A DNA stretch of 64,000 bases from positions 1,112 to 65,111 of the forward strand of contig JAFGKM010000003.1 in assembly GCA_016928555.1 (NCBI GenBank), given 5' to 3'. Positions within the stretch are counted from its first letter, which is position 1; every line of letters starts with the position of its first letter. The position numbers and the translations under genes are program-made. Positions 3,963 to 61,984 of the stretch are shown piece after piece. The notes under the pieces were generated by a model. That model searched no databases. It was not told the DNA's origin and saw only the letters and a program-made list of their open reading frames with translations. Source of the DNA: Candidatus Omnitrophota bacterium (GTDB lineage: Bacteria > Ratteibacteria > UBA8468 > B48-G9 > JAFGKM01).

Positions 3963-4181
3963 TTATCCCCTTACCATTTTTGTTCCGCACTTTGGACAGT
4001 TTCTGTCAAAGCAGGGGACTCCTGCTTGATGCACTGCTTTCTCCCCGCATGATGGGCATACGCAAAAGCCTCCGGGTCCTGCCGCTCTGCCTCCCATTCT
4101 TCCTCCTGCGCCTCTTCCCTGTCCTCTTCTTCCTGTCATGGGTCCCTGTCCCAGCGGTCCCGTTCCGTCTCCTCTCGGCAT
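3963..4181 (-). CDS. DUF5320 family protein (MPRGDGTGP N-terminus, Gly/Arg-rich linker, C-terminal 4-Cys zinc ribbon)
   Basis: Start placed at ATG 4181 (MPRGDGTGP) because AAGGGGGGTGAG SD lies directly upstream; ORF track start 4217 is an N-terminal extension. C-term CxxC...CxxC (CPSCGEK...CPKCGTK). Confidence 0.6.
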   Translation of the reverse strand: MPRGDGTGPLGQGPMTGRRGQGRGAGGRMGGRAAGPGGFCVCPSCGEKAVHQAGVPCFDRNCPKCGTKMVRG

Positions 4182-4373
4182 GTTGCTCACCCCCCTTTTA
4201 CCCCGCTTTCCCTTCACGCATATAGGTTCATTATCTGCGTCGTCAGCTTCCTCGACGTATTATACATACGCCTCGTTGCTTCCTCCTTGCTTCTTCCTTC
4301 TATACATGAATTGAAAACGGGCGTCTATATTGCTCTGTTTTATCTCCATAGGAATTACACAAAGCAATTAACA

Positions 4374-5234: not shown

Positions 5235-5660
5235 TTACTTTGCCTTTCCTGCCTCTTTCTCAAGTTCAGCAATCCTTTTCTTCATGTCGCCCAGCTGTTC
5301 CTCCAGAATCTTTGTCTGCGACTGAAGCATCTCCCTTTCTTGTTCTGGAGTTGCCTGCCAGACAGCATAAGGGTCGATTGCCGGGTCAGGAGCAAAAGGA
5401 TAGGATACAGGGCCTGTCGGATATGGTGCATTCCCAAAATAGGGGTTTCCGTAAAACCATCTGCCTCTTCCCATTCCTCTGCCAAAACCTCTGCCGAATC
5501 CTCTGCCTCTGCCAAACCCGCGGCCCCATCCAAAACCTAATCCGCGGCCGCCGGCATAAGGATTCATGTAACCGGGAACTCCATAACCTGCACAGTATCC
5601 TGCCGCCCTGCCTGTCATCGGACCGAGTCCTGCCGGTCCCGTTCCGTCTCCGCGTGGCAT
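5235..5660 (-). CDS. DUF5320 family protein with RGF/RGG low-complexity repeats and C-terminal coiled coil
   Basis: Start at ATG 5660 (MPRGDGTGPAGLGPMTGR) with AAGGAGGTGAG SD upstream, same start architecture as 3963-4181; (GRGFGRG)n repeats; C-terminal heptad-like ...EEQLGDMKKRIAELEKEAGK. Confidence 0.6.
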   Translation of the reverse strand: MPRGDGTGPAGLGPMTGRAAGYCAGYGVPGYMNPYAGGRGLGFGWGRGFGRGRGFGRGFGRGMGRGRWFYGNPYFGNAPYPTGPVSYPFAPDPAIDPYAVWQATPEQEREMLQSQTKILEEQLGDMKKRIAELEKEAGKAK

Positions 5661-5687
5661 ATTACTCACCTCCTTTACCCCGAACTC

Positions 5688-8116: not shown

Positions 8117-9376
8117 ATGGAAAAACTGGCAATTGAAGGGGGAAAACCGGTCAATGCTGAAAAGTTTCCGATGTGGCCGTCTTTTTCGGAAAAATCCATA
8201 AAGATGGTTTCCGAGCCGTTGAAGACGGGCAGGGTTAATTACTGGACTGGAGAAGAAGGCGTAAGGTTTGAGAAGGAATGGGCGAAATGGAACGGGGCAA
8301 AGTATGCCGTTACCACGACAAACGGCACAAGCGCCCTGCATACGGCCGTTGCGGCGCTCGGAATCGGACCCGGGGATGAAATTATATGCCCGTCATATTC
8401 CTTTATCGCCTCATCTTTCTGCGTATTGCAGGCAGGCGCCCTTCCCGTCTTTGCCGACGTTGACGAGTCGCATACCTTAAGCCCGAAAGAGATAGAGCCG
8501 CTTATTAACGAAAGGACGAAGGCGGTAATTGCCGTTCATCTTTACGGGGTTGTGGCGGACATGGAGCCGATTCTCGCGGTCGCCAAAAAACACAACCTTG
8601 CCGTTATAGAGGACTGCGCCCAGTGCTTCGGCGGGATTTACAAAGGCAATAAAGTAGGGACTGTCGGCGATGTAGGATGTTTCAGTTTCTGCCAGAGCAA
8701 GCATTTTACAACCGGCGGAGAAGGCGGGGCGATTATAACCGACAATGAGGATTTGTGGTGGGAGTGCAAGTCGTTCAGGGACCACGGTTATGACGTGAAA
8801 GAGCGCCTTCGCCTTCTTGAACTGGAAGAAAAACTTACATATATTCACAAGAGAGTCGGGTTTAATTACCGAATGACAGAGATGCAGTCTTTGATAGGCT
8901 TGTGCGAGCTTGAAAGGTTTGACAGTTGGAATCTTGCAAACAGAAAGAGAAATGCGAAGTATCTTATCGATGCATTGAAGGGGCATCCGCTGGTGCTTCA
9001 CACGCCGGTTGATACGCAGGAGAGGCAGAATGCGTTCTGGTGGGTGCCGTTTGTGATTGATGCGGATAAACTTAAGGTTACCGTGAAGCAGTTTGTCGCG
9101 GCGGTGGGAGCGGAAGGCGTGCCTGTTTACGGCGTCCAGTGGCCGGAGATGTACAGGGAAGCAGCTTATACCGGAAAACATGGCTTCGGGAAACTGCAGT
9201 ATCCGTTTAACGACCCGAGCGCAAGGAAGATTGATTACACCAAATTTGACTGCAAAAAGGCGCAGTGGCTTTCTAAGAGGACGATGAATTTCTTCCCGCA
9301 TCCGGTCTATGAGATAAAGCATATGGAAAAATGCGTTGAGGCGTTCAAAAAGGTTGCGGACGCATATATGAAATAA
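8117..9376 (+). CDS. DegT/DnrJ/EryC1/StrS-family PLP-dependent sugar aminotransferase
   Basis: 419 aa; conserved 'SFCQSKHFTTGGEGGAI' region containing the PLP-binding lysine; 'NGTSALH' motif. Confidence 0.85.
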   Translation: MEKLAIEGGKPVNAEKFPMWPSFSEKSIKMVSEPLKTGRVNYWTGEEGVRFEKEWAKWNGAKYAVTTTNGTSALHTAVAALGIGPGDEIICPSYSFIASSFCVLQAGALPVFADVDESHTLSPKEIEPLINERTKAVIAVHLYGVVADMEPILAVAKKHNLAVIEDCAQCFGGIYKGNKVGTVGDVGCFSFCQSKHFTTGGEGGAIITDNEDLWWECKSFRDHGYDVKERLRLLELEEKLTYIHKRVGFNYRMTEMQSLIGLCELERFDSWNLANRKRNAKYLIDALKGHPLVLHTPVDTQERQNAFWWVPFVIDADKLKVTVKQFVAAVGAEGVPVYGVQWPEMYREAAYTGKHGFGKLQYPFNDPSARKIDYTKFDCKKAQWLSKRTMNFFPHPVYEIKHMEKCVEAFKKVADAYMK

Positions 9377-9398
9377 ACTTTCGGGAGAGACAATATGG

Positions 9399-9455
9399 TA
9401 AATCCCCCTGTTTCCCCCTTTGTCAAAGGGGGAATTCAAAGGGGATTTGGGAGGG
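9399..9455. repeat. 57-nt structured intercistronic repeat, copy 1 (identical to 58118-58174)
   Basis: TAAATCCCCCTGTTTCCCCCTTTGTCAAAGGGGGAATTCAAAGGGGATTTGGGAGGG; inner hairpin CCCCCTTTG/CAAAGGGGG (9414-9432), outer 7-bp stem AATCCCC/GGGGATT; ends in SD-like GGGAGGG 6 nt before ATG 9462. Confidence 0.7.
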
Positions 9456-9461
9456 GAAAGG

Positions 9462-10514
9462 ATGGCTGCGGTGAAAAAGGTAAATATGGGAGTCATGGGA
9501 GCAGGGGGGATAGCGTACAGGAGAACCATCCCCGGGATGCTGAAGGCAAAAAACATAAATCTTGCCGCGGTAATGGATGTCGTGCGGATTGAAGAGATAG
9601 CAAAAGAGTTTAATGTGCCTAAGGCTTATGTCTCTGAAAAAGAGATTGTCCGGGACCCTGATATTGATGCGGTTTATATCGCGAGTCCAGTATACCTGCA
9701 CCTGAAGCATATAAAACTGGCTGCCGAGAACGGCAAGCATATCCTGTGCGAAAAACCGATAACGGCAGCCATCAGGGAGGCAAAAGAGGCCGCCAATATA
9801 TGCAGAAAAAACAAGGTATTTTTTCAGGAAGGGTACATGATGAAATTTCACGGAGCCCACGAGAAAATAAGGGAAATTATAAGCGAAGGCGGAATCGGAA
9901 AGGTCGTTTACATAAGGGCGCAGTTATCCTGCTGGTATCCTCCGATGAAGGGGGCGTGGAGGCAGGACCCGAAAAAAGGAGGAGGCGGCTCCCTGATTGA
10001 TATGGCAACGCACCTTTACGACCTGCTTGAATTCTTCACGGGCGAGAAAATAGGGTGGATATCGGCCATATCTAATAACCAGGTACAGGGCTATAAGTCA
10101 GAGGATTCCTCAACAACGATGCTGGAGTTCAAGTCGGGAACCCATGCTACGGTGGACTGTTTTTTCTGTATCCCCGACGAGTCAACCAGAACCCGGCTTG
10201 AGATATACGGTTCGCAGGGCAGTATCTTCACCGAGGGGACGATAGGGCAGAGTACCGGCGGAACGATGGAAGGGATATTCGGACTCGGAGCCGGCGGGTA
10301 TGAGGCAAAACAGAGCAAGGACGTTACCCGCAGATTCAGAAGCATAAAATTCAAAAAAATCAATCCTTATACGGCGGAGTGCGAGTACTTTGCAAACTGC
10401 ATACTGAAAAATGAAAAGCCCGGGATAAACAGCATGGAGAACGCGCTCCACATAATGGACGTTACGGAAAAAGCGTACAGTTCCTGGAAACTCAAAAAAA
10501 TCCTCAGGGTATAG
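9462..10514 (+). CDS. Gfo/Idh/MocA-family NAD(P)-dependent oxidoreductase
   Basis: Start moved to ATG 9462 (MAAVKKVNMGVMGAGGIAY, Rossmann GxGxxG); the track ORF start 9420 reads through the repeat element. 'ILCEKP' motif typical of the family. Confidence 0.8.
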   Translation: MAAVKKVNMGVMGAGGIAYRRTIPGMLKAKNINLAAVMDVVRIEEIAKEFNVPKAYVSEKEIVRDPDIDAVYIASPVYLHLKHIKLAAENGKHILCEKPITAAIREAKEAANICRKNKVFFQEGYMMKFHGAHEKIREIISEGGIGKVVYIRAQLSCWYPPMKGAWRQDPKKGGGGSLIDMATHLYDLLEFFTGEKIGWISAISNNQVQGYKSEDSSTTMLEFKSGTHATVDCFFCIPDESTRTRLEIYGSQGSIFTEGTIGQSTGGTMEGIFGLGAGGYEAKQSKDVTRRFRSIKFKKINPYTAECEYFANCILKNEKPGINSMENALHIMDVTEKAYSSWKLKKILRV

Positions 10515-32528: not shown

Positions 32529-33584
32529 TTACTTTTTCCTTAGAGAAGCTGTTGTTTTTCTGATTATAAATTTAGGCTTGACCAGAACATTCTTGTGTTT
32601 TCCTCTTTTATTAATTAGATCCATAAGCAAAAAAACCGACTTTCTCCCAATTTCCAATAGCCGGGTGTCTATTGTAGTCAATCCGGGGTTAGATAAACCA
32701 CTTTCGGGTATGTTATCAAAACCTACGATTGACAATTGCTCCGGAACTTTGATACGGTTGTTCCGGCAATAGTCGAGAATATGCAACGCCCGGCTGTCAT
32801 TGGAGGCAAAAATTGCTGTGGGAGGATCCTTTAACGCCATCAGTTGTTTCATCGCCAACCAGTCTTTTTCCGGATTAATACCATCTGTTTCTTTTACCAG
32901 TTTCATGTCCAATTTGATTTTCTTGTTTCTTAATTCTTTAAGGTAACCTTCAAAACGTGGAATCATCCATGGTGCTGCCAGCTGCCCTGCAAAAAGGCCG
33001 ATTCGTCTGTGCCCCAGAGAAAAAAGGTGTTTCATTGCCATGGAAACGCCCTTTTTATAATCAATGCCAACGCTGCTGGCATTTTCCTTCGGCTCATATG
33101 AATGAACTACTACGTAAGTTCCTTTATTATATGAAATAGGTACATTTACTAACGCTTCCTCAAAAATAATGTTGAAAGAACTTTTTCTGTTGTTTAAAAA
33201 AGAGGGTTTGGTGATAATTGCCAGTTTAGAATGAGTTTCCTGAACCACTTCTTTAATTCCCCCGAAAATTTGAAGTTTAATATAATCTTTTGGAACATCT
33301 GTATCAGTATCAATAAAGAGGTTTATTTGTAAAGTATAAGAGTCTTTGAAAACAAAGGTGCCTTTACACGGATACTTTCTGACCAAATTAGCTTCTTGCA
33401 GTTCAGAAGTGACACGCTTTGCCGTAATCATGCTTACCTGATGTTTCTTGCAGATCTCTTTCAGTGAGTAAAAATGCTCTCCGCCGTTAAAATTACCTGT
33501 TTCCAATTCATTGCTCAGCTCGACAAATATTTCCTTCCACCGCGGACATTTGTTTTGAGTTGCTTTCAGGTTTACATTCTCCAT
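32529..33584 (-). CDS. GntR-type HTH regulator fused to LacI/PBP1-type sugar-binding domain
   Basis: N-terminal wHTH ('[23 protein letters not shown]'), C-terminal periplasmic-binding-fold ('[34 protein letters not shown]'). Confidence 0.7.
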
Positions 33585-33727
33585 TTCTGCATTATACTAT
33601 AGCATATAAAATTTGTCAAGTTTAAATTTTATAATAAGTTTCTCAATTCTTCATATTTACATGCATGACAATCCATAACAAACTTTCAGGTTTACATTCT
33701 CCATTTTTGCGTTATACTATAGCATAT
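33565..33727. repeat. 44-nt direct repeat (2 mismatches) duplicating the regulator's start/operator region
   Basis: TTTCAGGTTTACATTCTCCATTT(C/T)TGC(A/G)TTATACTATAGCATAT at 33565-33607 and 33684-33727; copy 1 contains the ATG of 32529-33584; each copy has near-palindrome TATACTATAGCATA. Confidence 0.65.
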
Positions 33728-34264
33728 GTTTTTTGCCAAGTATTATTTGCAGTTATATAAAGATAGATGTTTCAATATACCTATAAAATTTTATTCTTGC
33801 AGAAACCTAGGAAAATAAGTGTTTGAATATCGTCTGGATTATCCAATAGCAGTTAATTCTCAAAAAAGGTTATATTTTCTCACAATTTCACGGCTTTCTT
33901 CAGTCGTATTTTATGAAGCACCAAAAATTGGAGTTGAAAATATAGTGGACATGTTCGGCATTTTTTGAACTTTATTTTTATATTATTCGTGAAAGACGGG
34001 TATCAATCACCAGCATGATTTTATTGCTTACGGGATAAAGAATCAAAAAAAATATCAACGGAGATGAAATTCAACTTATCATGTGTCATCAAGCAGGGTA
34101 TAATACCCTACACTATCAGTGCCCATTAGATGGTGTGTTTAAGGCGCCCATTGACGATAGTCTGTATGAATCGTCAAAAACAACCCGACATATATTATAA
34201 CGGTTTTTCCACCATTTACAATACTATTCTAATTTTAAAATTGGTGGGAATTCTGGTATAATAA

Positions 34265-51305: not shown

Positions 51306-53015
51306 ATGCCGACTAAAAAGGAAGTAATAAATATAATATCGAGCATCGGTCTGTGGGACAAAAAATCGATAGAATCTGCTCTTGAAGAGCAGGAATCAAC
51401 GGGGAATTCCTTAAAAGAGGTTTTCCAGAACAGGGGGATGCTTCCTTTCGGCGAAGTTTCCCCCTCTTTTTACTTTCAGATGGGCGTGGTTCAGAAAGAA
51501 CTTCCCGCCAGGGAAATTCCTTCGGAATTGTTGAACGCCATCCCCCCGAAAGTTGCAAAAAATCACAGGGTGATACCGTGGGAAAAAAGGGAAGACGGAA
51601 GGTTTATCCTTGTTTCAGACGACCCCATTAACATCCTCGCTTCCGATTACTTCAGAAGGCTTATAGGTGCGGAGGATGTGAAAACTGTTGAAGTTTTGAT
51701 AACTTTCCCCGAAGAAATCAACCAGCTGCTTGAAAAATATTATGCCCAGGAATCAATGGAAGACCTTTCCCAGATGCTTCAGGAAGCGAGCAGCGCCACC
51801 ATAGACCTTGACCTGCCTGAAGCCGAGGTGGACGAGGGAGACGATGAAGCCCTTGCCCTGCAGGCGCCTGTAGTAAAAATATGCAACCTTGTTTTTGTTG
51901 AAGCGTTGAGGCGGAGGGCAAGCGATATACATTTTGAACCCCTGGAAAAAAAATTCAGGGTCAGGTTCCGCATAGACGGCGTCTTATATGAAGTTGTTGC
52001 GCCGCCGAAAAGGGTGGAAAAAGCCGTTATAGCAAGAGTGAAATTAATGGCAAAGATGGACCTTGCGGAAAAGCGCCTGCCGCAGGACGGAAGAATAATG
52101 CTTGATATCGGAGGCAAGCCCATAGATTTCCGCGTATCCGCCCTTCCCGGCATATACGGGGAAAGCATTGTACTGAGAATACTTGACAAGACTTCCATGT
52201 TAAAAGGGCTTGAGGAGCTCGGATTCCTTCCCGAGGATTTGGAAAAATGGACGGAACTTCTGAAATATACGGGAGGGCTGGTGCTTGTAACCGGACCGAC
52301 GGGTTCCGGAAAAACAACAACGCTTTATGCCGCCCTCCAGACGCTTAATACAATGGACAGGAAGCTGATGACGGTTGAAGAGCCGGTTGAATATCAGATT
52401 CCGGGTATCAACCAGACTCCCGTCAATTCGGACATCGGGCTTACTTTTGCGTCTGTGCTGAGGTCTTTTCTGCGCCAGTCCCCGGACGTCATACTTATAG
52501 GGGAAATCAGGGATTTTGAAACTTCAGATATTGCGCTCAGGGCCGCTCTTACCGGACATCTCGTATTCAGCACTCTGCATACAAATGACGCTCCCGGCGC
52601 AATTACACGCCTTATAGACATGGGCGCCCCTCCTTTTCTTATCGCCTCTTCAGTACAGGGCGTTATGGCCCAGCGCCTGGTAAGGGTTCTGTGCTCCTAC
52701 TGCAAAGAGAAAATAGAGCCGGATGAGAATATGAAGAAAATATTGCGGGCGAAGGAAGGAGAGGAGCTTAATGTTTGCAAGCCGAAAGGATGCAATGAAT
52801 GCAACTTTACCGGCTTCCGCGGCAGGCTGGGTATATTTGAGATTTTCTCCATGAACGATGAATTGAGGGAACTTGCTCTCAAGAGGGTCGGAACGACAGA
52901 GATAAGGGATGCGGCAAGAAGGGCGGGCATGAAGCTGATGGTGGAAGACGGCTACGAAAAAGTTAAAAGAGGCATTACTACGCTTGACGAAGTATATACG
53001 GTAACGGGAGAATGA
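51306..53015 (+). CDS. Type IV pilus assembly / type II secretion ATPase PilB/GspE family
   Basis: N-terminal T2SSE_N-like domain; Walker A 'GPTGSGKTTT'; Asp/His boxes; tetracysteine CxxC...CxxC (CSYCKEK...CNEC). Confidence 0.85.
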   Translation: MPTKKEVINIISSIGLWDKKSIESALEEQESTGNSLKEVFQNRGMLPFGEVSPSFYFQMGVVQKELPAREIPSELLNAIPPKVAKNHRVIPWEKREDGRFILVSDDPINILASDYFRRLIGAEDVKTVEVLITFPEEINQLLEKYYAQESMEDLSQMLQEASSATIDLDLPEAEVDEGDDEALALQAPVVKICNLVFVEALRRRASDIHFEPLEKKFRVRFRIDGVLYEVVAPPKRVEKAVIARVKLMAKMDLAEKRLPQDGRIMLDIGGKPIDFRVSALPGIYGESIVLRILDKTSMLKGLEELGFLPEDLEKWTELLKYTGGLVLVTGPTGSGKTTTLYAALQTLNTMDRKLMTVEEPVEYQIPGINQTPVNSDIGLTFASVLRSFLRQSPDVILIGEIRDFETSDIALRAALTGHLVFSTLHTNDAPGAITRLIDMGAPPFLIASSVQGVMAQRLVRVLCSYCKEKIEPDENMKKILRAKEGEELNVCKPKGCNECNFTGFRGRLGIFEIFSMNDELRELALKRVGTTEIRDAARRAGMKLMVEDGYEKVKRGITTLDEVYTVTGE

Positions 53016-53016
53016 G

Positions 53017-54162
53017 ATGCCTAAGAAGATAGAGGAGCTTCTTACTATGCAGGTTAAGTCAAACGCGGCTGACCTGCACCTTAACGTGGGGCTTCCCCCT
53101 ATGCTCAGAATGCACGGGGGATTGACAAAGGTTGACAACGAACCTCTTACCCCGGAGGATACCGCCAATTATATGAAAGCCATAACGTCAAGGGAGCACC
53201 AGGAAGAACTGCAGAAGATAGGCGGTACGGACTTCGGCTTTGCTTTCAAGGACCTTGCGAGGTTCAGGGTCAGCGTTTTCAAGGAAAGAGGCAGTGTTGC
53301 CATGGCATTGAGGCTGATCCCTTACCAGTTTTTAAGGTTTGACCAGATAGGGCTTGAAGAAAAGACGATGAGGTATCTGCTTACGAGGCCCAGGGGGCTT
53401 ATCCTTGTTGTGGGGCCCACAGGTTCGGGTAAAACAACCACTCTTGCCACAATGGTGGACTGGATTAACGAAAATCTTGACAGGCATATCATTACTGTGG
53501 AAGACCCCATAGAATATTATCACGGGCATAAAAGGTCTATTGTTACCCAGAGGGAACTTGGGGTTGACGTACCCACTTTTGAAGAAGCTCTCAGAAGGGG
53601 ATTGCGGCAGGACCCAGACGTTTTCCTCGTAGGTGAAATGAGAGACCTTGACACTATTGAAGCCGCGATTACCGCCGCGGAGACAGGCCACATAGTTTTT
53701 GCCACCCTGCACACGACGGGAGCTCCCAGAACGGTGGACAGAATTGTGAATGTTTTCCCGGTTGCCCAGCAGGAGCAGATAAGGGTTATGCTTTCGGTTT
53801 CAATCCTTGCCATCGTGTCGCAGGTTCTTTTGAAGCGCGTGGATAAGCCCGGGAGGGTTGCCGCTTTTGAGGTGATGCTTGCGACTACCTCAATACAGAA
53901 CCTTATACGCGAAAGGAAGACTTACAGAATAGTTTCCGAGATACAGACGGGAGGCAAGATGGGGATGGTTACCCTGGACTCTTTTCTCATGAATCTGTTC
54001 AGGGAGGGAAAGATAAACTTTGAAGACGTCCTTACGTATGCCTACGACCCCACATCCGCAAAAGCGGAGCTGGCGGCAGAGGGGTTGATTGACGAATCCA
54101 TGCTTTCCATGCAGACGGAAGGCGTTACGGACGTTAAGCTTGACAGGGATAAAAATGGCTGA
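53017..54162 (+). CDS. pilT: PilT-family type IV pilus retraction ATPase
   Basis: 381 aa; 'GPTGSGKTTTLA', 'GEMRDLDTIEAAITAAETGH', 'ATLHT'; no N-terminal T2SSE_N domain. Confidence 0.8.
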   Translation: MPKKIEELLTMQVKSNAADLHLNVGLPPMLRMHGGLTKVDNEPLTPEDTANYMKAITSREHQEELQKIGGTDFGFAFKDLARFRVSVFKERGSVAMALRLIPYQFLRFDQIGLEEKTMRYLLTRPRGLILVVGPTGSGKTTTLATMVDWINENLDRHIITVEDPIEYYHGHKRSIVTQRELGVDVPTFEEALRRGLRQDPDVFLVGEMRDLDTIEAAITAAETGHIVFATLHTTGAPRTVDRIVNVFPVAQQEQIRVMLSVSILAIVSQVLLKRVDKPGRVAAFEVMLATTSIQNLIRERKTYRIVSEIQTGGKMGMVTLDSFLMNLFREGKINFEDVLTYAYDPTSAKAELAAEGLIDESMLSMQTEGVTDVKLDRDKNG

Positions 54163-55873
54163 GAAAAAACTGTTGGGACAGATGCTTCTGGAAGAAGGGG
54201 TTGTTACCGAGTCGGAGTTAAAAAAGGCCCTTGATAATCAGAGAAAAACGGGGCATTTTCTCGGAAGAATCCTTGTCGACATGGGGTTTGTCGACGAGAA
54301 AGAGCTGAAGCGCATTCTCAGCATTCAGGCAGGGATTGAGATGATAGACCTGAAGAATACACCTATAGACAAGAAAGGCGTGGAGGTTTTTCCCTCGGCT
54401 CTTGCCAAGACGTATAATGCCGTTCCCGTGAAGCTTGAAAGAAATATATTGACCCTCGCCGTAGGCGATACCCTGAGCCTGAATATACAGGACGATATAT
54501 CGTTTATCCTCGGCTACAAGACAAAAATGGTTCTGGCCGATGAGAATGACATAAGGGATGCCATAGAGACTCATTACGGGAAAGAAATAGAGACTATAGA
54601 CGACCTTATAAAATGGCTCGCCCAGGATGTTGAAGAGATGGAAGAGCTGGATGCAATTGCCAGCCAGGGTGAATACGCCACAATCACTTCGCTTGAAGAA
54701 ATAGCATCGCTTCCGCCTGTAGTAAAACTTTTTGACCTGATACTTTTACAGACGGTAAGAGACAATGCTTCCGACGTGCACCTGGAGCCTTTTGAAGAAG
54801 ACTTCCGGGTAAGATACAGGGTTGACGGCGTTCTGTACGACCTTGTCCATCCTCCGAGAGGGCTGTCTTTTGCTCTTTTCTGCAGGTTTAAAATCATGGC
54901 CGGCATGGATATTGCGGAGAGGCGCCTTCCGCAGGACGGCAGAATAGAACTGTCCATGATGGGGAGAGCCGTGGACCTTCGTATAAATACGGTGCCCACT
55001 GTTTTCGGAGAGTGCCTTGCCATAAGGGTGCTCGACAGAGCAAAAACCATTTTTGAGCTTGAGAACCTCGGCCTGGACCAAAGCAACATGGAAAGGGTTG
55101 ACGGCATCATAAGAAAACCAAACGGGATAGTGCTTGCCACGGGCCCGACCGGATGCGGCAAGACTACAACTCTTTATGCGGTGTTGAGGAAGCTTAATAC
55201 GCCCGATGTCAAGGTAATAACCACAGAGGACCCCGTAGAATACATGCTGGAAGGCTCCATACAGGTGCCCATCAGGGAAAAGATAGGGCTTACTTTCGCA
55301 AAATGCCTCAGAAGCATATTGAGGCAGGACCCGGACATCATCCTGGTGGGAGAGGTCAGGGATTTTGATACCGCCCAGATGGCGATACAATCGTCTTTGA
55401 CGGGACATCTTGTCTTGAGCACACTCCATACAAACGACGCACCCAGTACTATTATGAGGCTCATAGACATGAAAATAGAACCCTTTCTGCTTGCTTCTAC
55501 GATAGAAGGGGTTGTTGCCCAGAGGCTTTTGAGGGTGCTTTGTCCCAGGTGTAAAGAGGAATACAGGCCTTCAAAAAACGAACTGTTTGAAGTAAAATTG
55601 TCCGGGGAAGATGCGGATAAAATGAAATTCTATAAACCAAAGGGCTGCCCTTTCTGCAGGAGCGGCTACAAAGGGCGTATCGCCCTGTTTGAGATACTTA
55701 TACCCACGGAACCTTTTTGGGAAGCGGTCGTGGAAGGCAAGCCTCTGGGGGAAATCAGGAAGGTTGCGGTTGAGAAGTGCGGAATGAAAACTTTGCTTGA
55801 CGATGGACTTGACAAGATAAATGAGGGTATAACATCATTGGAGGAAGTTGCAAAGGAAATACACGGCTATTAA
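54155..55873 (+). CDS. Second PilB/GspE-family secretion ATPase
   Basis: ATG 54155 overlaps pilT stop by 8 nt; T2SSE_N-like N-term; 'GPTGCGKTTT'; CPRCKEE...CPFC zinc motif. Confidence 0.85.
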   Translation: MAEKKLLGQMLLEEGVVTESELKKALDNQRKTGHFLGRILVDMGFVDEKELKRILSIQAGIEMIDLKNTPIDKKGVEVFPSALAKTYNAVPVKLERNILTLAVGDTLSLNIQDDISFILGYKTKMVLADENDIRDAIETHYGKEIETIDDLIKWLAQDVEEMEELDAIASQGEYATITSLEEIASLPPVVKLFDLILLQTVRDNASDVHLEPFEEDFRVRYRVDGVLYDLVHPPRGLSFALFCRFKIMAGMDIAERRLPQDGRIELSMMGRAVDLRINTVPTVFGECLAIRVLDRAKTIFELENLGLDQSNMERVDGIIRKPNGIVLATGPTGCGKTTTLYAVLRKLNTPDVKVITTEDPVEYMLEGSIQVPIREKIGLTFAKCLRSILRQDPDIILVGEVRDFDTAQMAIQSSLTGHLVLSTLHTNDAPSTIMRLIDMKIEPFLLASTIEGVVAQRLLRVLCPRCKEEYRPSKNELFEVKLSGEDADKMKFYKPKGCPFCRSGYKGRIALFEILIPTEPFWEAVVEGKPLGEIRKVAVEKCGMKTLLDDGLDKINEGITSLEEVAKEIHGY

Positions 55874-57400: not shown

Positions 57401-58093
57401 ATGGAAAATCTGAATACTATACGCTGTACGCTATACGCTGAACGCCAAGGTTTCACTTTGATAGAACTGCTTGTTGTCATAGCCATTATCGGCGTGCTTG
57501 CCGCCCTGCTCCTGCCTACGCTGGCAACGGCGAGGGAGAGGGCAAGAAGAACTACCTGTGTAAACAACCTGCGTCAGATTTCAATGGCTTATGAGATGTA
57601 TGCGGCCGATTTTTACGAGAAGTTCCCTGTCAGCAAATATGCGGTGGGAGGAACCGGCACTGCGGGCGCAAAAACTATCATTCCCTTTTACCTGAATACG
57701 CCGAGGACATTCTGGTGTCCTTCAAGCGCAAGCAGGAACAATGCGTCTCCGGGTGCTGTAGATTCCGCAAATTGTGAAAACTCCTATTCGTTTGTTTTCG
57801 GGCTGACCGCTTCAAACAGAGCTACCAATCCCGTGCCCATGATAAGCGACAGCCACATATACCAGAGCGGGATAACCGGCTTCGGCAATCACAAGTACGG
57901 TGTTAACGTGCTTTTCATAGACGGGAGCGTTCAGTGGATAAACATGGAAGATATCCGTTATGCCGATACTGCGGCTGACGGTTCCAAGGGTCCTGAAAAC
58001 AGCAATTTAAACGTTGCGTATTATTTTAACGGAACGGACACGCTCAGCTCCATAACAATAGCGGATGCGAATAAATCAAACTGGGGCGAATAA
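57401..58093 (+). CDS. Prepilin-type N-terminal methylation domain protein with DUF1559-like C-terminus
   Basis: Start ATG 57401 after GAAGGAGG SD; leader [17 protein letters not shown]|[22 protein letters not shown]; C-term '[12 protein letters not shown]'. Confidence 0.75.
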
Positions 58094-58117
58094 AAAATGC
58101 GGAGGAATCAATGACGA

Positions 58118-58174
58118 TAAATCCCCCTGTTTCCCCCTTTGTCAAAGGGGGAATTCAAAGGGGATTTGGGAGGG
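58118..58174. repeat. 57-nt structured intercistronic repeat, copy 2 (identical to 9399-9455)
   Basis: Same 57-mer; lies between the two pilin genes; GGGAGGG SD-like end 9 nt before ATG 58184. Confidence 0.7.
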
Positions 58175-58183
58175 AGGAAAAAT

Positions 58184-58846
58184 ATGATTACTGAACGCAA
58201 GGGATTTACTCTTATAGAACTGCTGGTTGTAATGGTTATCATAGCGGTGCTTGCCGGGCTCCTTCTGCCCGCAATAAGGAAGTCACGTTCCAAGGCGCTG
58301 GTAGACAAGGCGCAGGCGGAGATGACGTCTTTAGCCGCCATTGTTGCCATGGCAAAGATGGATGTGGGATACTACGTCCGGTTATGCGACCTGAATATGG
58401 TTGATGGGGATATAAAAGATGACTTAGACCCTAATCCTAAACCATACTACTATACCGAAAATTTTGCCGTTCCTGCAGAAGTTGCGCCGTTGGTAAATAC
58501 TACGACGGGTGTTCCTTATGATACCGTTGTCAAATTAGCAGCCGTCTGGGACGGCCCCTACCAGGTTTTCCAGGTCAGCGCCGTGCTCAACGGATACGGA
58601 AGCATTCCTGCCGCCGGCACTACGTCATGGAACGTTACTCCAAACACGGGAGATTTTCCGGACGGAACGCCTCTCGACCCGTGGGGAAGGGCATACGGAA
58701 TGTCCTACAACTATGCCGTGGATGCCGCCTCCGACAGGAAGTCGATGATTATTTACTCTGCAGGCCCCAACGGCACAATGGAGACGAATGTAGGGGATTC
58801 TCTCATACCCGCAGGTTCCGACGACCTCCTGTGGATATTCCGTTAA
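58184..58846 (+). CDS. GspG-like type II secretion pseudopilin / type IV pilin-like protein
   Basis: Start ATG 58184 (MITERKG|[22 protein letters not shown]); 'KAQAEMTSLAAIVAMAKMDVGYY' and C-terminal 'DPWGRAY...YSAGPNG' typical of GspG. Confidence 0.8.
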   Translation: MITERKGFTLIELLVVMVIIAVLAGLLLPAIRKSRSKALVDKAQAEMTSLAAIVAMAKMDVGYYVRLCDLNMVDGDIKDDLDPNPKPYYYTENFAVPAEVAPLVNTTTGVPYDTVVKLAAVWDGPYQVFQVSAVLNGYGSIPAAGTTSWNVTPNTGDFPDGTPLDPWGRAYGMSYNYAVDAASDRKSMIIYSAGPNGTMETNVGDSLIPAGSDDLLWIFR

Positions 58847-60207: not shown

Positions 60208-61984
60208 ATTTTTTTATTGCTCCGGCGGGGCAAATCTCCGCGCATATGCCGCATCCTGTGCAGTATAGGGATATAGCCGCTTTATTTTCCTTGAAAGTTA
60301 TTGCCGGGCAGTTAATCTGCATGCATATTTTACAGCCGGTGCATTTCTCAGCATCCACGCGGAATTTTTCTTTCTGTTTTCTCTCAACGAAGATGCATCC
60401 TCTCTTTGCAATAATAACTCTGACGCCTTTTTTGCCCTTAAGAGCCTTAAGTTTTTGAACCGATTCCTTTATACGGTAAGGGTCTATCGTTACAACCTTT
60501 TCCGCTCCGCAGGCATATGCAATTTTTTCAATGTCTATACCGGCCGATTTTTCGCCTCCGGCAGTTATTCCGGTTCCCGGATGCGGCTGGTGTCCCGTCA
60601 TAGCCGTGGTGCGGTTATCCAGTATGGCTATTATCTGGTTTGCTTTATTGTAGCAGGCGTTGATGAGTCCCGTTATGCCTGCGTGGAAAAATGTTGAATC
60701 GCCTATTATTGATATTACCTCGCGTTCTTTTTCAAACCTGGACATGCCGGAGCCGGTGTTTATTCCTCCGCCCATGCACAGGCAGGTGTCTATCGTCCCG
60801 GATTGTATGCCGAGAGTGTAGCATCCTATGTCTCCCGGGAAAAGGGCATCTTTCCCGAAAACTTTTTTCAGTATGTAAAAAGAGCCCGTGTGTGAACAGC
60901 CCGGGCATAAAACAGGCATTCTGACGGGAAGACTGGCGGGGCTTTCCGGTTCTCCCTGTTGCTTTTCCTCTGCGCCGGAAACTTTTTTCAGTATTTTTTT
61001 CAGCAGGTCTACGGAAAGTTCTCCTCCCTCCGGTACAATTCCGTTCATCCTTCCGGAGATGCAGACTAACGGATTGCACGATTTTGAGATAATATATATT
61101 TTTTCCTCGATTACAGGGTCCCCTTCTTCGAGAACGAGAATTTTCTTTTTTCCTTTTATGAATAATGCAAGCTTGTTTTCCGGAAGCGGGAAAGTAGATG
61201 CCTTAAATACGGCAACAGGCAGATTCTCCTCTGCTTTCATCTCCATGATATACGGATAGGATATGCCCGATGCGACAATCCCCGTTTCCGAAGGATTCCC
61301 GTCCGTTTTATTAAAGGGCATTTCTTCCATGATTTTTTTCAAAACCGGCTGTTTTTCATTAAGGCGTTTTAACGCGGTGCGCGCATTGGACGGCACCATT
61401 ACAAATCTTGACGGGTCCTTTCGGAATTGCGAATCGCGCTTTATATGGTTTAGTTTCCCGAGTTCCACGTCGGATTTGCCGTGGGAAATTCTGGTTACGC
61501 TTCTCAGCATGACGGGAAGCCCCGTTTTTTCAGAAAGGGAAAACGCAAAAGCAGCCATATCTTTTGCCTCCTGTATGGACGAGGGCTCAAGATACGGTAT
61601 TTTTGCGAGAAGAGCATATCTTCTTGAATCCTGTTCGTTCTGTGAGGAATGGGCGTAAGGGTCGTCTGCAACCACAAGTACAAGCCCGCCGATTATTCCA
61701 GTGTATGCCGAGGTTATGAAGGCGTCGGAGGCTACGTTGAGCCCCACGTGTTTCATTATCGCCGCGGCCCTCCTGCCAGTAAGAGAAACGCCGTATGCGT
61801 TTTCGTAAGCCGATTTTTCGTTCACCGACCATTCAGTGTAAAATCCGTGAGTTTTTGAAAGCTCAATCAGTTTTTCCGTGATTTCCGACGACGGGGTTCC
61901 CGGATAGGCAAAAGAAGCTTCAATTCCCCCTTCCAGCAATCCATAGGCGATCGCATCGTTCCCAAGCAGGTATTCTTTTTTCAT
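60194..61984 (-). CDS. iorA: Indolepyruvate:ferredoxin oxidoreductase subunit alpha (IorA), TPP-dependent with C-terminal 2x[4Fe-4S]
   Basis: 596 aa; TPP-binding 'GDSTFFHAG'; C-terminal CTGCKICMQINCP and CTGCGICAEICP ferredoxin motifs. Confidence 0.85.
   Translation of the reverse strand: MKKEYLLGNDAIAYGLLEGGIEASFAYPGTPSSEITEKLIELSKTHGFYTEWSVNEKSAYENAYGVSLTGRRAAAIMKHVGLNVASDAFITSAYTGIIGGLVLVVADDPYAHSSQNEQDSRRYALLAKIPYLEPSSIQEAKDMAAFAFSLSEKTGLPVMLRSVTRISHGKSDVELGKLNHIKRDSQFRKDPSRFVMVPSNARTALKRLNEKQPVLKKIMEEMPFNKTDGNPSETGIVASGISYPYIMEMKAEENLPVAVFKASTFPLPENKLALFIKGKKKILVLEEGDPVIEEKIYIISKSCNPLVCISGRMNGIVPEGGELSVDLLKKILKKVSGAEEKQQGEPESPASLPVRMPVLCPGCSHTGSFYILKKVFGKDALFPGDIGCYTLGIQSGTIDTCLCMGGGINTGSGMSRFEKEREVISIIGDSTFFHAGITGLINACYNKANQIIAILDNRTTAMTGHQPHPGTGITAGGEKSAGIDIEKIAYACGAEKVVTIDPYRIKESVQKLKALKGKKGVRVIIAKRGCIFVERKQKEKFRVDAEKCTGCKICMQINCPAITFKENKAAISLYCTGCGICAEICPAGAIKKYEKM

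Follow-up and report, generated by a model that had tools for sequence, protein, structure and literature searches.

A probably mobile hairpin repeat carrying a Shine-Dalgarno sequence at the starts of unrelated genes in an Omnitrophota genome

A 57-nt sequence occurs twice in the 64-kb stretch of DNA analysed here (the window), each time in the gap between two genes and directly ahead of the second. We favour, with moderate confidence, the idea that it represents a mobile repeat of REPIN- or MITE-like type, small, non-autonomous and hairpin-forming, whose Omnitrophica-type subfamily carries a Shine-Dalgarno (SD) sequence and survives in translation-initiation regions. Insertion, dispersal, sequence conservation, and a fixed position and orientation were all observed, and the element is probably mobile. 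Among the points against this reading are that the 64 kb of source DNA show only two copies and that a clean target-site duplication is missing.

Searching the window with the 57-mer (TAAATCCCCCTGTTTCCCCCTTTGTCAAAGGGGGAATTCAAAGGGGATTTGGGAGGG) revealed two exact copies on the forward strand with 0 mismatches, which confirms the 57/57 identity at a distance of 48 kb reported in the sequence-only reading; none of 100 dinucleotide-preserving shuffles contained a match. Further or degenerate copies were absent from the 64-kb window at up to 3 mismatches or with looser regular expressions. The identity breaks off sharply at both ends, the flanks of the two copies are unrelated, and a repeat finder detected no larger duplicated block around them in the window, so that the copies are not parts of a larger duplicated segment, the outcome that the earlier reading had named as damaging to it. 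The edges of copy 1 are the limits of a stretch that is nearly unchanged in an orthologous copy at locus L252. Both copies are extragenic, located between the upstream stop codon and the annotated start of the next gene, and Pfam assigns the neighbouring genes as described earlier, DegT and Gfo at copy 1 and two pilin-like genes at copy 2 (Table 1).

Table 1. Coordinates of the two 57-nt copies in the window and of the features around them
Feature	Position	Strand	Remarks
Copy 1, 57-nt element	9399-9455	+	degT-Gfo/Idh/MocA intercistronic gap; exact match
Copy 2, 57-nt element	58118-58174	+	between two pilin-like genes; 57/57 identical to copy 1
Predicted nested hairpin, copy 1	9399-9449	+	outer stem 9399-9407/9441-9449; inner stem 9412-9421/9425-9434; 3-nt loop 9422-9424
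Predicted nested hairpin, copy 2	58118-58168	+	outer stem 58118-58126/58160-58168; inner stem 58131-58140/58144-58153
SD2 (GGGAGGG), 3' foot of copy 1 hairpin	9449-9455	+	6 nt before ATG 9462
SD2 (GGGAGGG), copy 2	58168-58174	+	9 nt before ATG 58184
Upstream SD1 (GGGAGAG, 9383-9389) and ATG 9395	9383-9397	+	3 nt before the element's AAT
Upstream SD1 (GGAGGA, 58101-58106) and ATG 58111	58101-58113	+	6 nt before the element's AAT
Upstream ORF 1, 65 aa, MVNPPVSPFVKGGIQRGFGRGK...	9395-9592	+	through the hairpin, then out of frame into the Gfo gene
Upstream ORF 2, 27 aa, MTINPPVSPFVKGGIQRGFGREEKYDY	58111-58194	+	frame of ORF 1 through the element; stops 11 nt inside the pilin gene
Gene upstream of copy 1: DegT/DnrJ/EryC1 aminotransferase	8117-9376	+	Pfam PF01041, E = 7e-88
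Gene downstream of copy 1: Gfo/Idh/MocA oxidoreductase, 350 aa, P0001	9462-10514	+	
Gene upstream of copy 2: prepilin-type N_methyl + DUF1559 protein	57404-58093	+	start not certain
Gene downstream of copy 2: prepilin-type N_methyl pilin, 220 aa, P0122	58184-58846	+	

The presence of only two copies in the window might invite explanation by chance similarity, by a larger segmental duplication or by an intrinsic terminator common to two operons. The probability that we leave to these explanations is close to nil, and they are already refuted by the failure of all shuffles to match, by the unrelated flanks and by the related copies in other genomes. Moreover, the stem is followed by GGGAGGG and no U-tract, and neither the terminator scan nor the promoter scan reports the element, which removes both a terminator and a promoter from consideration.

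The MFE and centroid folds of copy 1 give the nested hairpin at -27.9 kcal/mol (z = -2.2), and RNAalifold on seven related copies returns the same consensus; copy 2 folded with its flanks has z = -2.65. The outer and inner stems proposed earlier are therefore reproduced by folding. In both the MFE and the centroid fold the GGGAGGG is unpaired, as the single-stranded motif 6-9 nt ahead of the ATG had been described, and an SD-like GGAG comes right after GATTT in 7/7 aligned copies. The 3' end supplies or abuts the SD of the downstream gene. The ends of the 57-mer form terminal inverted repeats, in which 5' AAATCCCC pairs with 3' GGGGATTT, and the nested members of a wider superfamily have the same termini. 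Covariation of the stems, proposed in the sequence-only reading as a check, was found in part: the stems of the close subfamily are invariant (RNAalifold, 7 copies), so that the structure has no separate covariation support at that level, and in the wider superfamily covariation occurs at the closing pair of the inner stem only. No Rfam family matched anywhere in the window at gathering thresholds, and ranking by E-value gave only chance-level hairpin matches at the element (E >= 0.1). A G-quadruplex in the G-rich 3' half, including the SD, was considered and dropped, since the four G-tracts of the window copies do not occur in L236, L247 and L250.

NCBI places the starts of the two downstream genes at ATG 9462 (P0001) and ATG 58184 (P0122). 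Compared with the usual family starts, both proteins have 3 extra N-terminal residues (MAAVKK versus MKKV in Gfo, MITERKG versus MRKKG in the pilin). A longest-ORF listing gives both genes a common TTG-start N-terminus, MSKGEFKGDLGG, which the NCBI annotation does not use; given the NCBI starts, this shared N-terminus is an artefact, of the kind that ORF callers had been predicted to add. A comparable effect is seen at rhaM, which is called from an internal Met (93 aa) and not from the MSTLQ start (109 aa) in the element-bearing contigs L262-L266. The element thus shifts start-codon calls, here towards a spurious N-terminus and there towards an internal Met.

Several other repeats were noticed in the window. 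The region 51865-55766 contains paralogous secretion/pilus ATPase genes, recognisable by several repeat families (Walker-A-like and others), beside the pilin genes, and it resembles a type II secretion or type IV pilus-like cluster. An AT-rich intergenic segment of about 66 nt is repeated 120 nt apart at 33563-33628 and 33683-33748 with 85% identity, and could be a duplicated promoter or operator region. The 120-nt spacing occurs again for a 20-nt repeat at 60855-60874 and 60975-60994 (95% identity). Two copies of a 69-nt segment, at 4129-4197 and 5608-5676 (78% identity), lie 1.5 kb from each other and probably represent paralogous gene ends on the minus strand.

Scanning with the pattern AATCCCCCTGTNTCCCCCTTTGNCAAAGGGGGAATT and with a looser pattern revealed the same nested unit at L236 and L194 in the genome collection and at L247, L249 and L250 in metagenomes, which together with the two window copies makes seven independent loci. 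Apart from the element, no DNA similarity was found between the window and these five contigs. At 6/6 loci with a readable 3' side (the L194 contig ends inside the element, and its 3' side is not covered), the element points the same way as the gene behind it, and GATTT runs straight into an SD-like GGAG, after which comes a start codon. Between the stop codon of the preceding gene and the element there are usually 21-40 nt. The proteins encoded downstream are not related to one another, comprising Gfo, a pilin, RhaM, a BNR-repeat protein and two proteins without Pfam hits. At L236, L247, L249 and L250 the conserved DNA runs past SD2 into ATG-TCT-ACT-CTA-CAA or near variants, and because the conservation continues into the gene, the unrelated proteins at these 4 loci share an N-terminus and begin with MSTLQ or MSALL. 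The close subfamily had no hits in the viral scan, and the plasmid collection gave one weak partial hit.

We also notice that a 15-nt start, ATG-KCT-ACT-CTA-CAR (MSTLQ/MATLQ), heads unrelated genes at L236 (6180-6194), L247, L249, L250, L255 (147-161) and L257 (240-254). It stands directly after the hairpin and SD in four of these cases, and the hairpin is absent from the other two, which are Gfo orthologs.

Comparison of orthologous sites revealed that the element is an insertion, with empty sites at both the degT-Gfo and the rhaM locus. At the window's degT-Gfo position, the element is present in L252/L253 (90%). In L256 (88% amino acid identity in Gfo), the degT stop codon TAA is followed by AGGGAGGAAA and the ATG, leaving a spacer of 10 nt with no element, and in L254 (82%) the element is likewise absent from a 32-nt degT-Gfo spacer that ends GGAGGATGAA-ATG. 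A Gfo distance tree groups the window with L252, with L256 as their sister and L254 outside. Taken together with the empty sites in L256 and L254, this grouping indicates that the element was gained on the branch leading to the window and L252. The rhaM gene without the element (L259-L261; a cluster mate at >85% identity) encodes 106 aa starting MKRVCF, behind a 16-nt spacer that reads TGA AAGAAGAGGGGGGAGT ATG AAA AGG GTA, whereas rhaM with the element (L249) encodes 109 aa starting MSTLQRVCF, and its Pfam rhaM domain begins at residue 6. The comparison of filled and empty sites places the right junction exactly at ...CTACAA|AGGGTA. Our findings support the earlier idea of a dispersed element, in that presence/absence polymorphism at two loci reflects insertion and not local duplication. 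For the pilin locus, no ortholog closer than 58% identity was found.

Direct repeats at the junctions were also considered. Every close copy is bracketed by SD-like GGAG(G)/GGGAG pentamers, and functional SDs would look alike; longer flank similarity around the close copies reaches only 60-70%. The flank pairs show similarity of the SD...ATG type only, in which no clear target-site duplication can be recognised. Elsewhere at the degT-Gfo junction, L258 has a 242-nt spacer (1529-1770) with different G+C-rich hairpins, for example GGGGCGGCGATGCCCC, so this junction was struck by other insertions too. Meanwhile, L255 and L257, two Gfo orthologs on separate branches, have a MATLQ/MATQQ start (ATG GCT ACT CWA CAR) behind a G-rich SD with no hairpin. 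We speculate that recombination between the two SDs may have removed the hairpin and left these starts behind as scars.

The 57-mer has changed little while its surroundings diverged. Identity between the degT genes of the window and L252 is 88.5% over the whole gene and drops to 72.6% at third codon positions; sequences just outside the 57-mer have diverged with indels. Within the 57-mer, 2/57 positions differ, besides a 26-nt insertion in the apical loop. This insertion (L252 1771-1797, and also in L253) is a mini-hairpin, CCGCCACAAAGCGCAGGCGG... (CCGCC...GGCGG), forming a palindrome nested in a palindrome. From these comparisons, the 57-mer is under constraint or homogenised. The two paralogous copies in the window are 100% identical and thus more alike than the orthologous window/L252 pair, which suggests recent copying or homogenisation within the genome.

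A further feature, missed by the earlier reading, is an SD and ATG upstream of every close copy. They precede the element at 7/7 independent loci, with the ATG always 3 or 6 nt before AAT, and the orthologous L252 copy has a GTG in place of the ATG. The start codons of ORF 1 and ORF 2 (M..NPPVSPFVKGGIQRGFGR...) are in the same frame relative to the element. Since all three frames through the core are open, avoidance of stop codons does not explain this fixed frame. The length of the upstream ORF ranges from 20 to 102 aa across the loci, and the position of its stop varies. Compared with random start regions of the window, the upstream SD+ATG modules are only slightly more alike, as 45/2000 random sets reach the observed similarity. 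The upstream module could be a displaced native start, a part of the element or a duplicated target. Judged from the sequences, the simplest edit from an L256-like ancestor would be one insertion between TAA-A and the native GGGAGG, and the simplest edit at rhaM would be an insertion after codon 2. A role of the upstream ORF as a real small protein was rejected: a peptide search gave 7 candidates and one weak hit, and in L252 the reading frame of the peptide is interrupted.

A selected cis-regulatory leader would also account for a strongly conserved sequence that stands strictly at gene starts and has an upstream start codon in a fixed frame. In such a leader, ribosomes would translate an upstream ORF (M-x-NPPVSPF-x-KGG...) across a stable hairpin reaching to the main gene's SD. 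Their passage, or a stall at sites such as the Pro-Pro codons, would refold the hairpin and so control translation of the next cistron, much as in a leader-peptide attenuator or a device for translational coupling. We consider this explanation unlikely, even though the same frame at 7/7 loci plus the GTG of L252 (offset 3 or 6 nt), the far slower evolution of the 57-mer than of synonymous sites, and the constant placement at gene starts in one orientation all speak for it. The element was gained and is absent from close relatives at the same locus, where the gene works without it; the downstream genes have no common function; and the upstream ORF is constant in neither length nor stop. In L252, the 26-nt loop insertion puts the 3' half of the ORF into another frame, which together with the GTG start indicates that the hairpin is conserved and the peptide is not. 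The predicted fold also leaves SD2 free, and no alternative pairing that would sequester SD2 was seen.

The hairpin could instead act at the RNA level, as a domesticated element that blocks 3'-5' exonucleases and stabilises the upstream cistron, or as a site of processing that leaves the downstream cistron with a structured 5' end. Some REP sequences in operons, such as malE-malF, block exonucleases and stabilise the upstream mRNA, and an element with a stable predicted hairpin (-27.9 kcal/mol), located exactly between cistrons and conserved beyond neutral expectation, might do the same. A stabiliser, however, needs no fixed orientation, terminal SD or upstream start codon, and among the matches listed the wider superfamily has no orientation bias towards genes. 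We regard this role as quite improbable as the full explanation. Both the leader-peptide and the mRNA-stabilising role are compatible with a mobile origin, and they are live alternatives.

The 57-mer is best explained as a member of a very widespread superfamily with the arrangement AAATCCCCC ... CCCCCTTT-loop-AAAGGGGG ... GGGGGATTT. The core motif AATCCCCC-N4-CCCCCTTT-loop-AAAGGGGG was found, among the matches listed, in MAGs with more than 15 phylum-level names, labelled Nitrospirae, Binatia, Delta-, Beta- and Gammaproteobacteria, Chloroflexi, Omnitrophica, Elusimicrobia, Planctomycetota, Ignavibacteriae, Acidobacteriota, Latescibacterota and others; one isolate, a Lysobacter, is also among them. 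The pattern AATCCCCC-N3-8-CCCCCTT-N1-7-AAGGGGG occurs in at least 120 viral-contig stretches, and a core pattern with 31 specified bases occurs in at least 119 stretches of species-representative genomes. Many core matches among those listed lie at contig ends and are often multi-copy. In some genomes the core is embedded in longer, lineage-specific units that are present in many copies. Genomes rich in the core include the Binatia MAGs and the Nitrospirae MAG JACQXD01; the latter, for example, has a 138-nt composite unit of four hairpins (L131, L137, L141, L144 and others). It accounts for 17 of the loci listed, and the 10 copies with full flanks that we aligned have sharp ends, often at contig ends, and no target-site duplication. 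Other units are about 110 nt long and bounded by AAATCCCCC...GGGGGGATT. Searches of the literature by DNA words, peptide words and topic found no description of the core motif.

At the base pair that closes the inner stem we observed covariation among 317 distinct cores in the matches listed, with T-A in 176 and C-G in 92. Base frequencies predict 157 Watson-Crick pairs there, whereas 269/317 were observed, and pairing does not extend to the next three positions outward. Under a crude ORF model, we observed no orientation bias of the superfamily relative to genes among the matches listed, and its nested members there have no upstream ATG. The association with gene starts is therefore specific to the close subfamily. 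Among REP-like repeats it is uncommon for a core to be conserved nearly base for base across many phyla and viral contigs, and this points to a common mobilising or binding factor, which it should be possible to identify. As many copies lie at contig ends, the element also breaks metagenome assemblies.

Returning to the mobile repeat that we favour, its behaviour may be pictured as follows. The close variant, present here and in a small number of related uncultured genomes, sits one way round in translation-initiation regions, where its 3' end supplies or abuts the SD, and some copies also supply the ATG and four codons. Owing to this SD, and sometimes the ATG, the downstream gene would stay translatable after insertion, and the built-in SD may be the reason why copies survive. 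At the 5' side, the SD and ATG would start a short ORF through the hairpin, and ribosomes there would melt the hairpin. Our best guess for the mechanism of movement is that an HUH-type (RAYT/IS200-like) enzyme, supplied in trans, would transpose the element as a single-stranded hairpin; this guess draws on the hairpin itself, on the conserved termini and on the absence of a clear target duplication. An effect on mRNA stability or on translational coupling may accompany the insertion. In compact genomes, which have almost no neutral space, an SD-carrying repeat could colonise operon junctions without silencing genes, and it would rewrite gene starts by creating new N-termini and new upstream ORFs.

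A bolder proposal, which we put forward tentatively and find somewhat doubtful, is that the element is a mobile translation-initiation cassette, one branch of an undescribed hairpin superfamily of many phyla and viral contigs with AAATCCCCC/GGGGGATTT termini and presumably a conserved mobilising enzyme. The hairpin transposon would land in, or survive only in, SD and start-codon regions. Genes would thereby receive a new head made of the element's own SD, to which full-length copies would add ATG-TCT-ACT-CTA-CAA (MSTLQ), and the old start would be left behind as the upstream ORF. Loss of the hairpin would then leave N-terminal 'scars', such as MATLQ/MATQQ in L255 and L257.

Among known systems, leader-peptide attenuators of the ermC type, and the short ORF-11 that overlaps attI in integrons and boosts cassette translation, share with our element a short ORF with its own SD that overlaps a structured region ending at the SD of the main gene. 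In our element, by contrast, neither the peptide nor the position of its stop is conserved, and no pairing that would hide SD2 is predicted. The genes that follow it are unrelated to one another, and even close relatives differ in whether they carry it.

The hallmark of REP sequences is a conserved GTAG/GTGG head beside the palindrome, which is the cleavage site of RAYT. The 57-mer differs in starting TAAATCCCCC, with no GTAG at either end. The earlier description as a REP/BIME-like element or small MITE therefore holds for a dispersed palindromic family with insertion and terminal inverted repeats, and is not supported for REP/BIME proper (definitions of REP/REPIN and MITE in PMC3116915, PMC3337134, PMC3184786). 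As in the REP/REPIN-RAYT system (PMC3116915, PMC3337134), we find short extragenic palindromes whose two inverted halves form one long hairpin, dispersed, long-lived at orthologous sites and near a family master sequence, with no obvious target-site duplication. By contrast, the core here is common to many phyla, whereas REP sequences are usually lineage-specific, and the close subfamily stands at gene starts in one orientation with an SD, a placement that REPs do not require. The copy-number criterion for REPs is tens to hundreds per genome; the window has 2 copies in 64 kb, and other MAGs hold many superfamily units.

The element also resembles bacterial MITEs such as Correia/NEMIS and the Rickettsia palindromic elements (reviewed in PMC3184786), being small (about 60-140 nt) and ending in the inverted repeats AAATCCCC / GGGGATTT. 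Presence/absence polymorphism is a further likeness: the degT-Gfo site is occupied in the window and in L252/L253 but lacks the element in L256 and L254. It differs in that target duplication is unclear, an SD-like pentamer lying on both sides. Correia/NEMIS and Rickettsia palindromic elements alter or fuse with genes, and both they and the present element can provide adjacent genes with expression signals or codons. To our knowledge, no described MITE carries an SD, or an SD and start codon, with which to re-head a gene.

For identical 5' regions before unrelated genes, the nearest concept is promoter reuse in prokaryotes, the reuse or 'mobility' of 5' regulatory regions (PMC3575422). In both cases, near-identical DNA lies upstream of non-homologous genes within and between genomes, and sometimes extends into the first codons. 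In promoter reuse (PMC3575422) it is promoter regions that are shared, whereas here the moving part, which has no promoter-like site, would be a hairpin with a translation-initiation signal inside operons.
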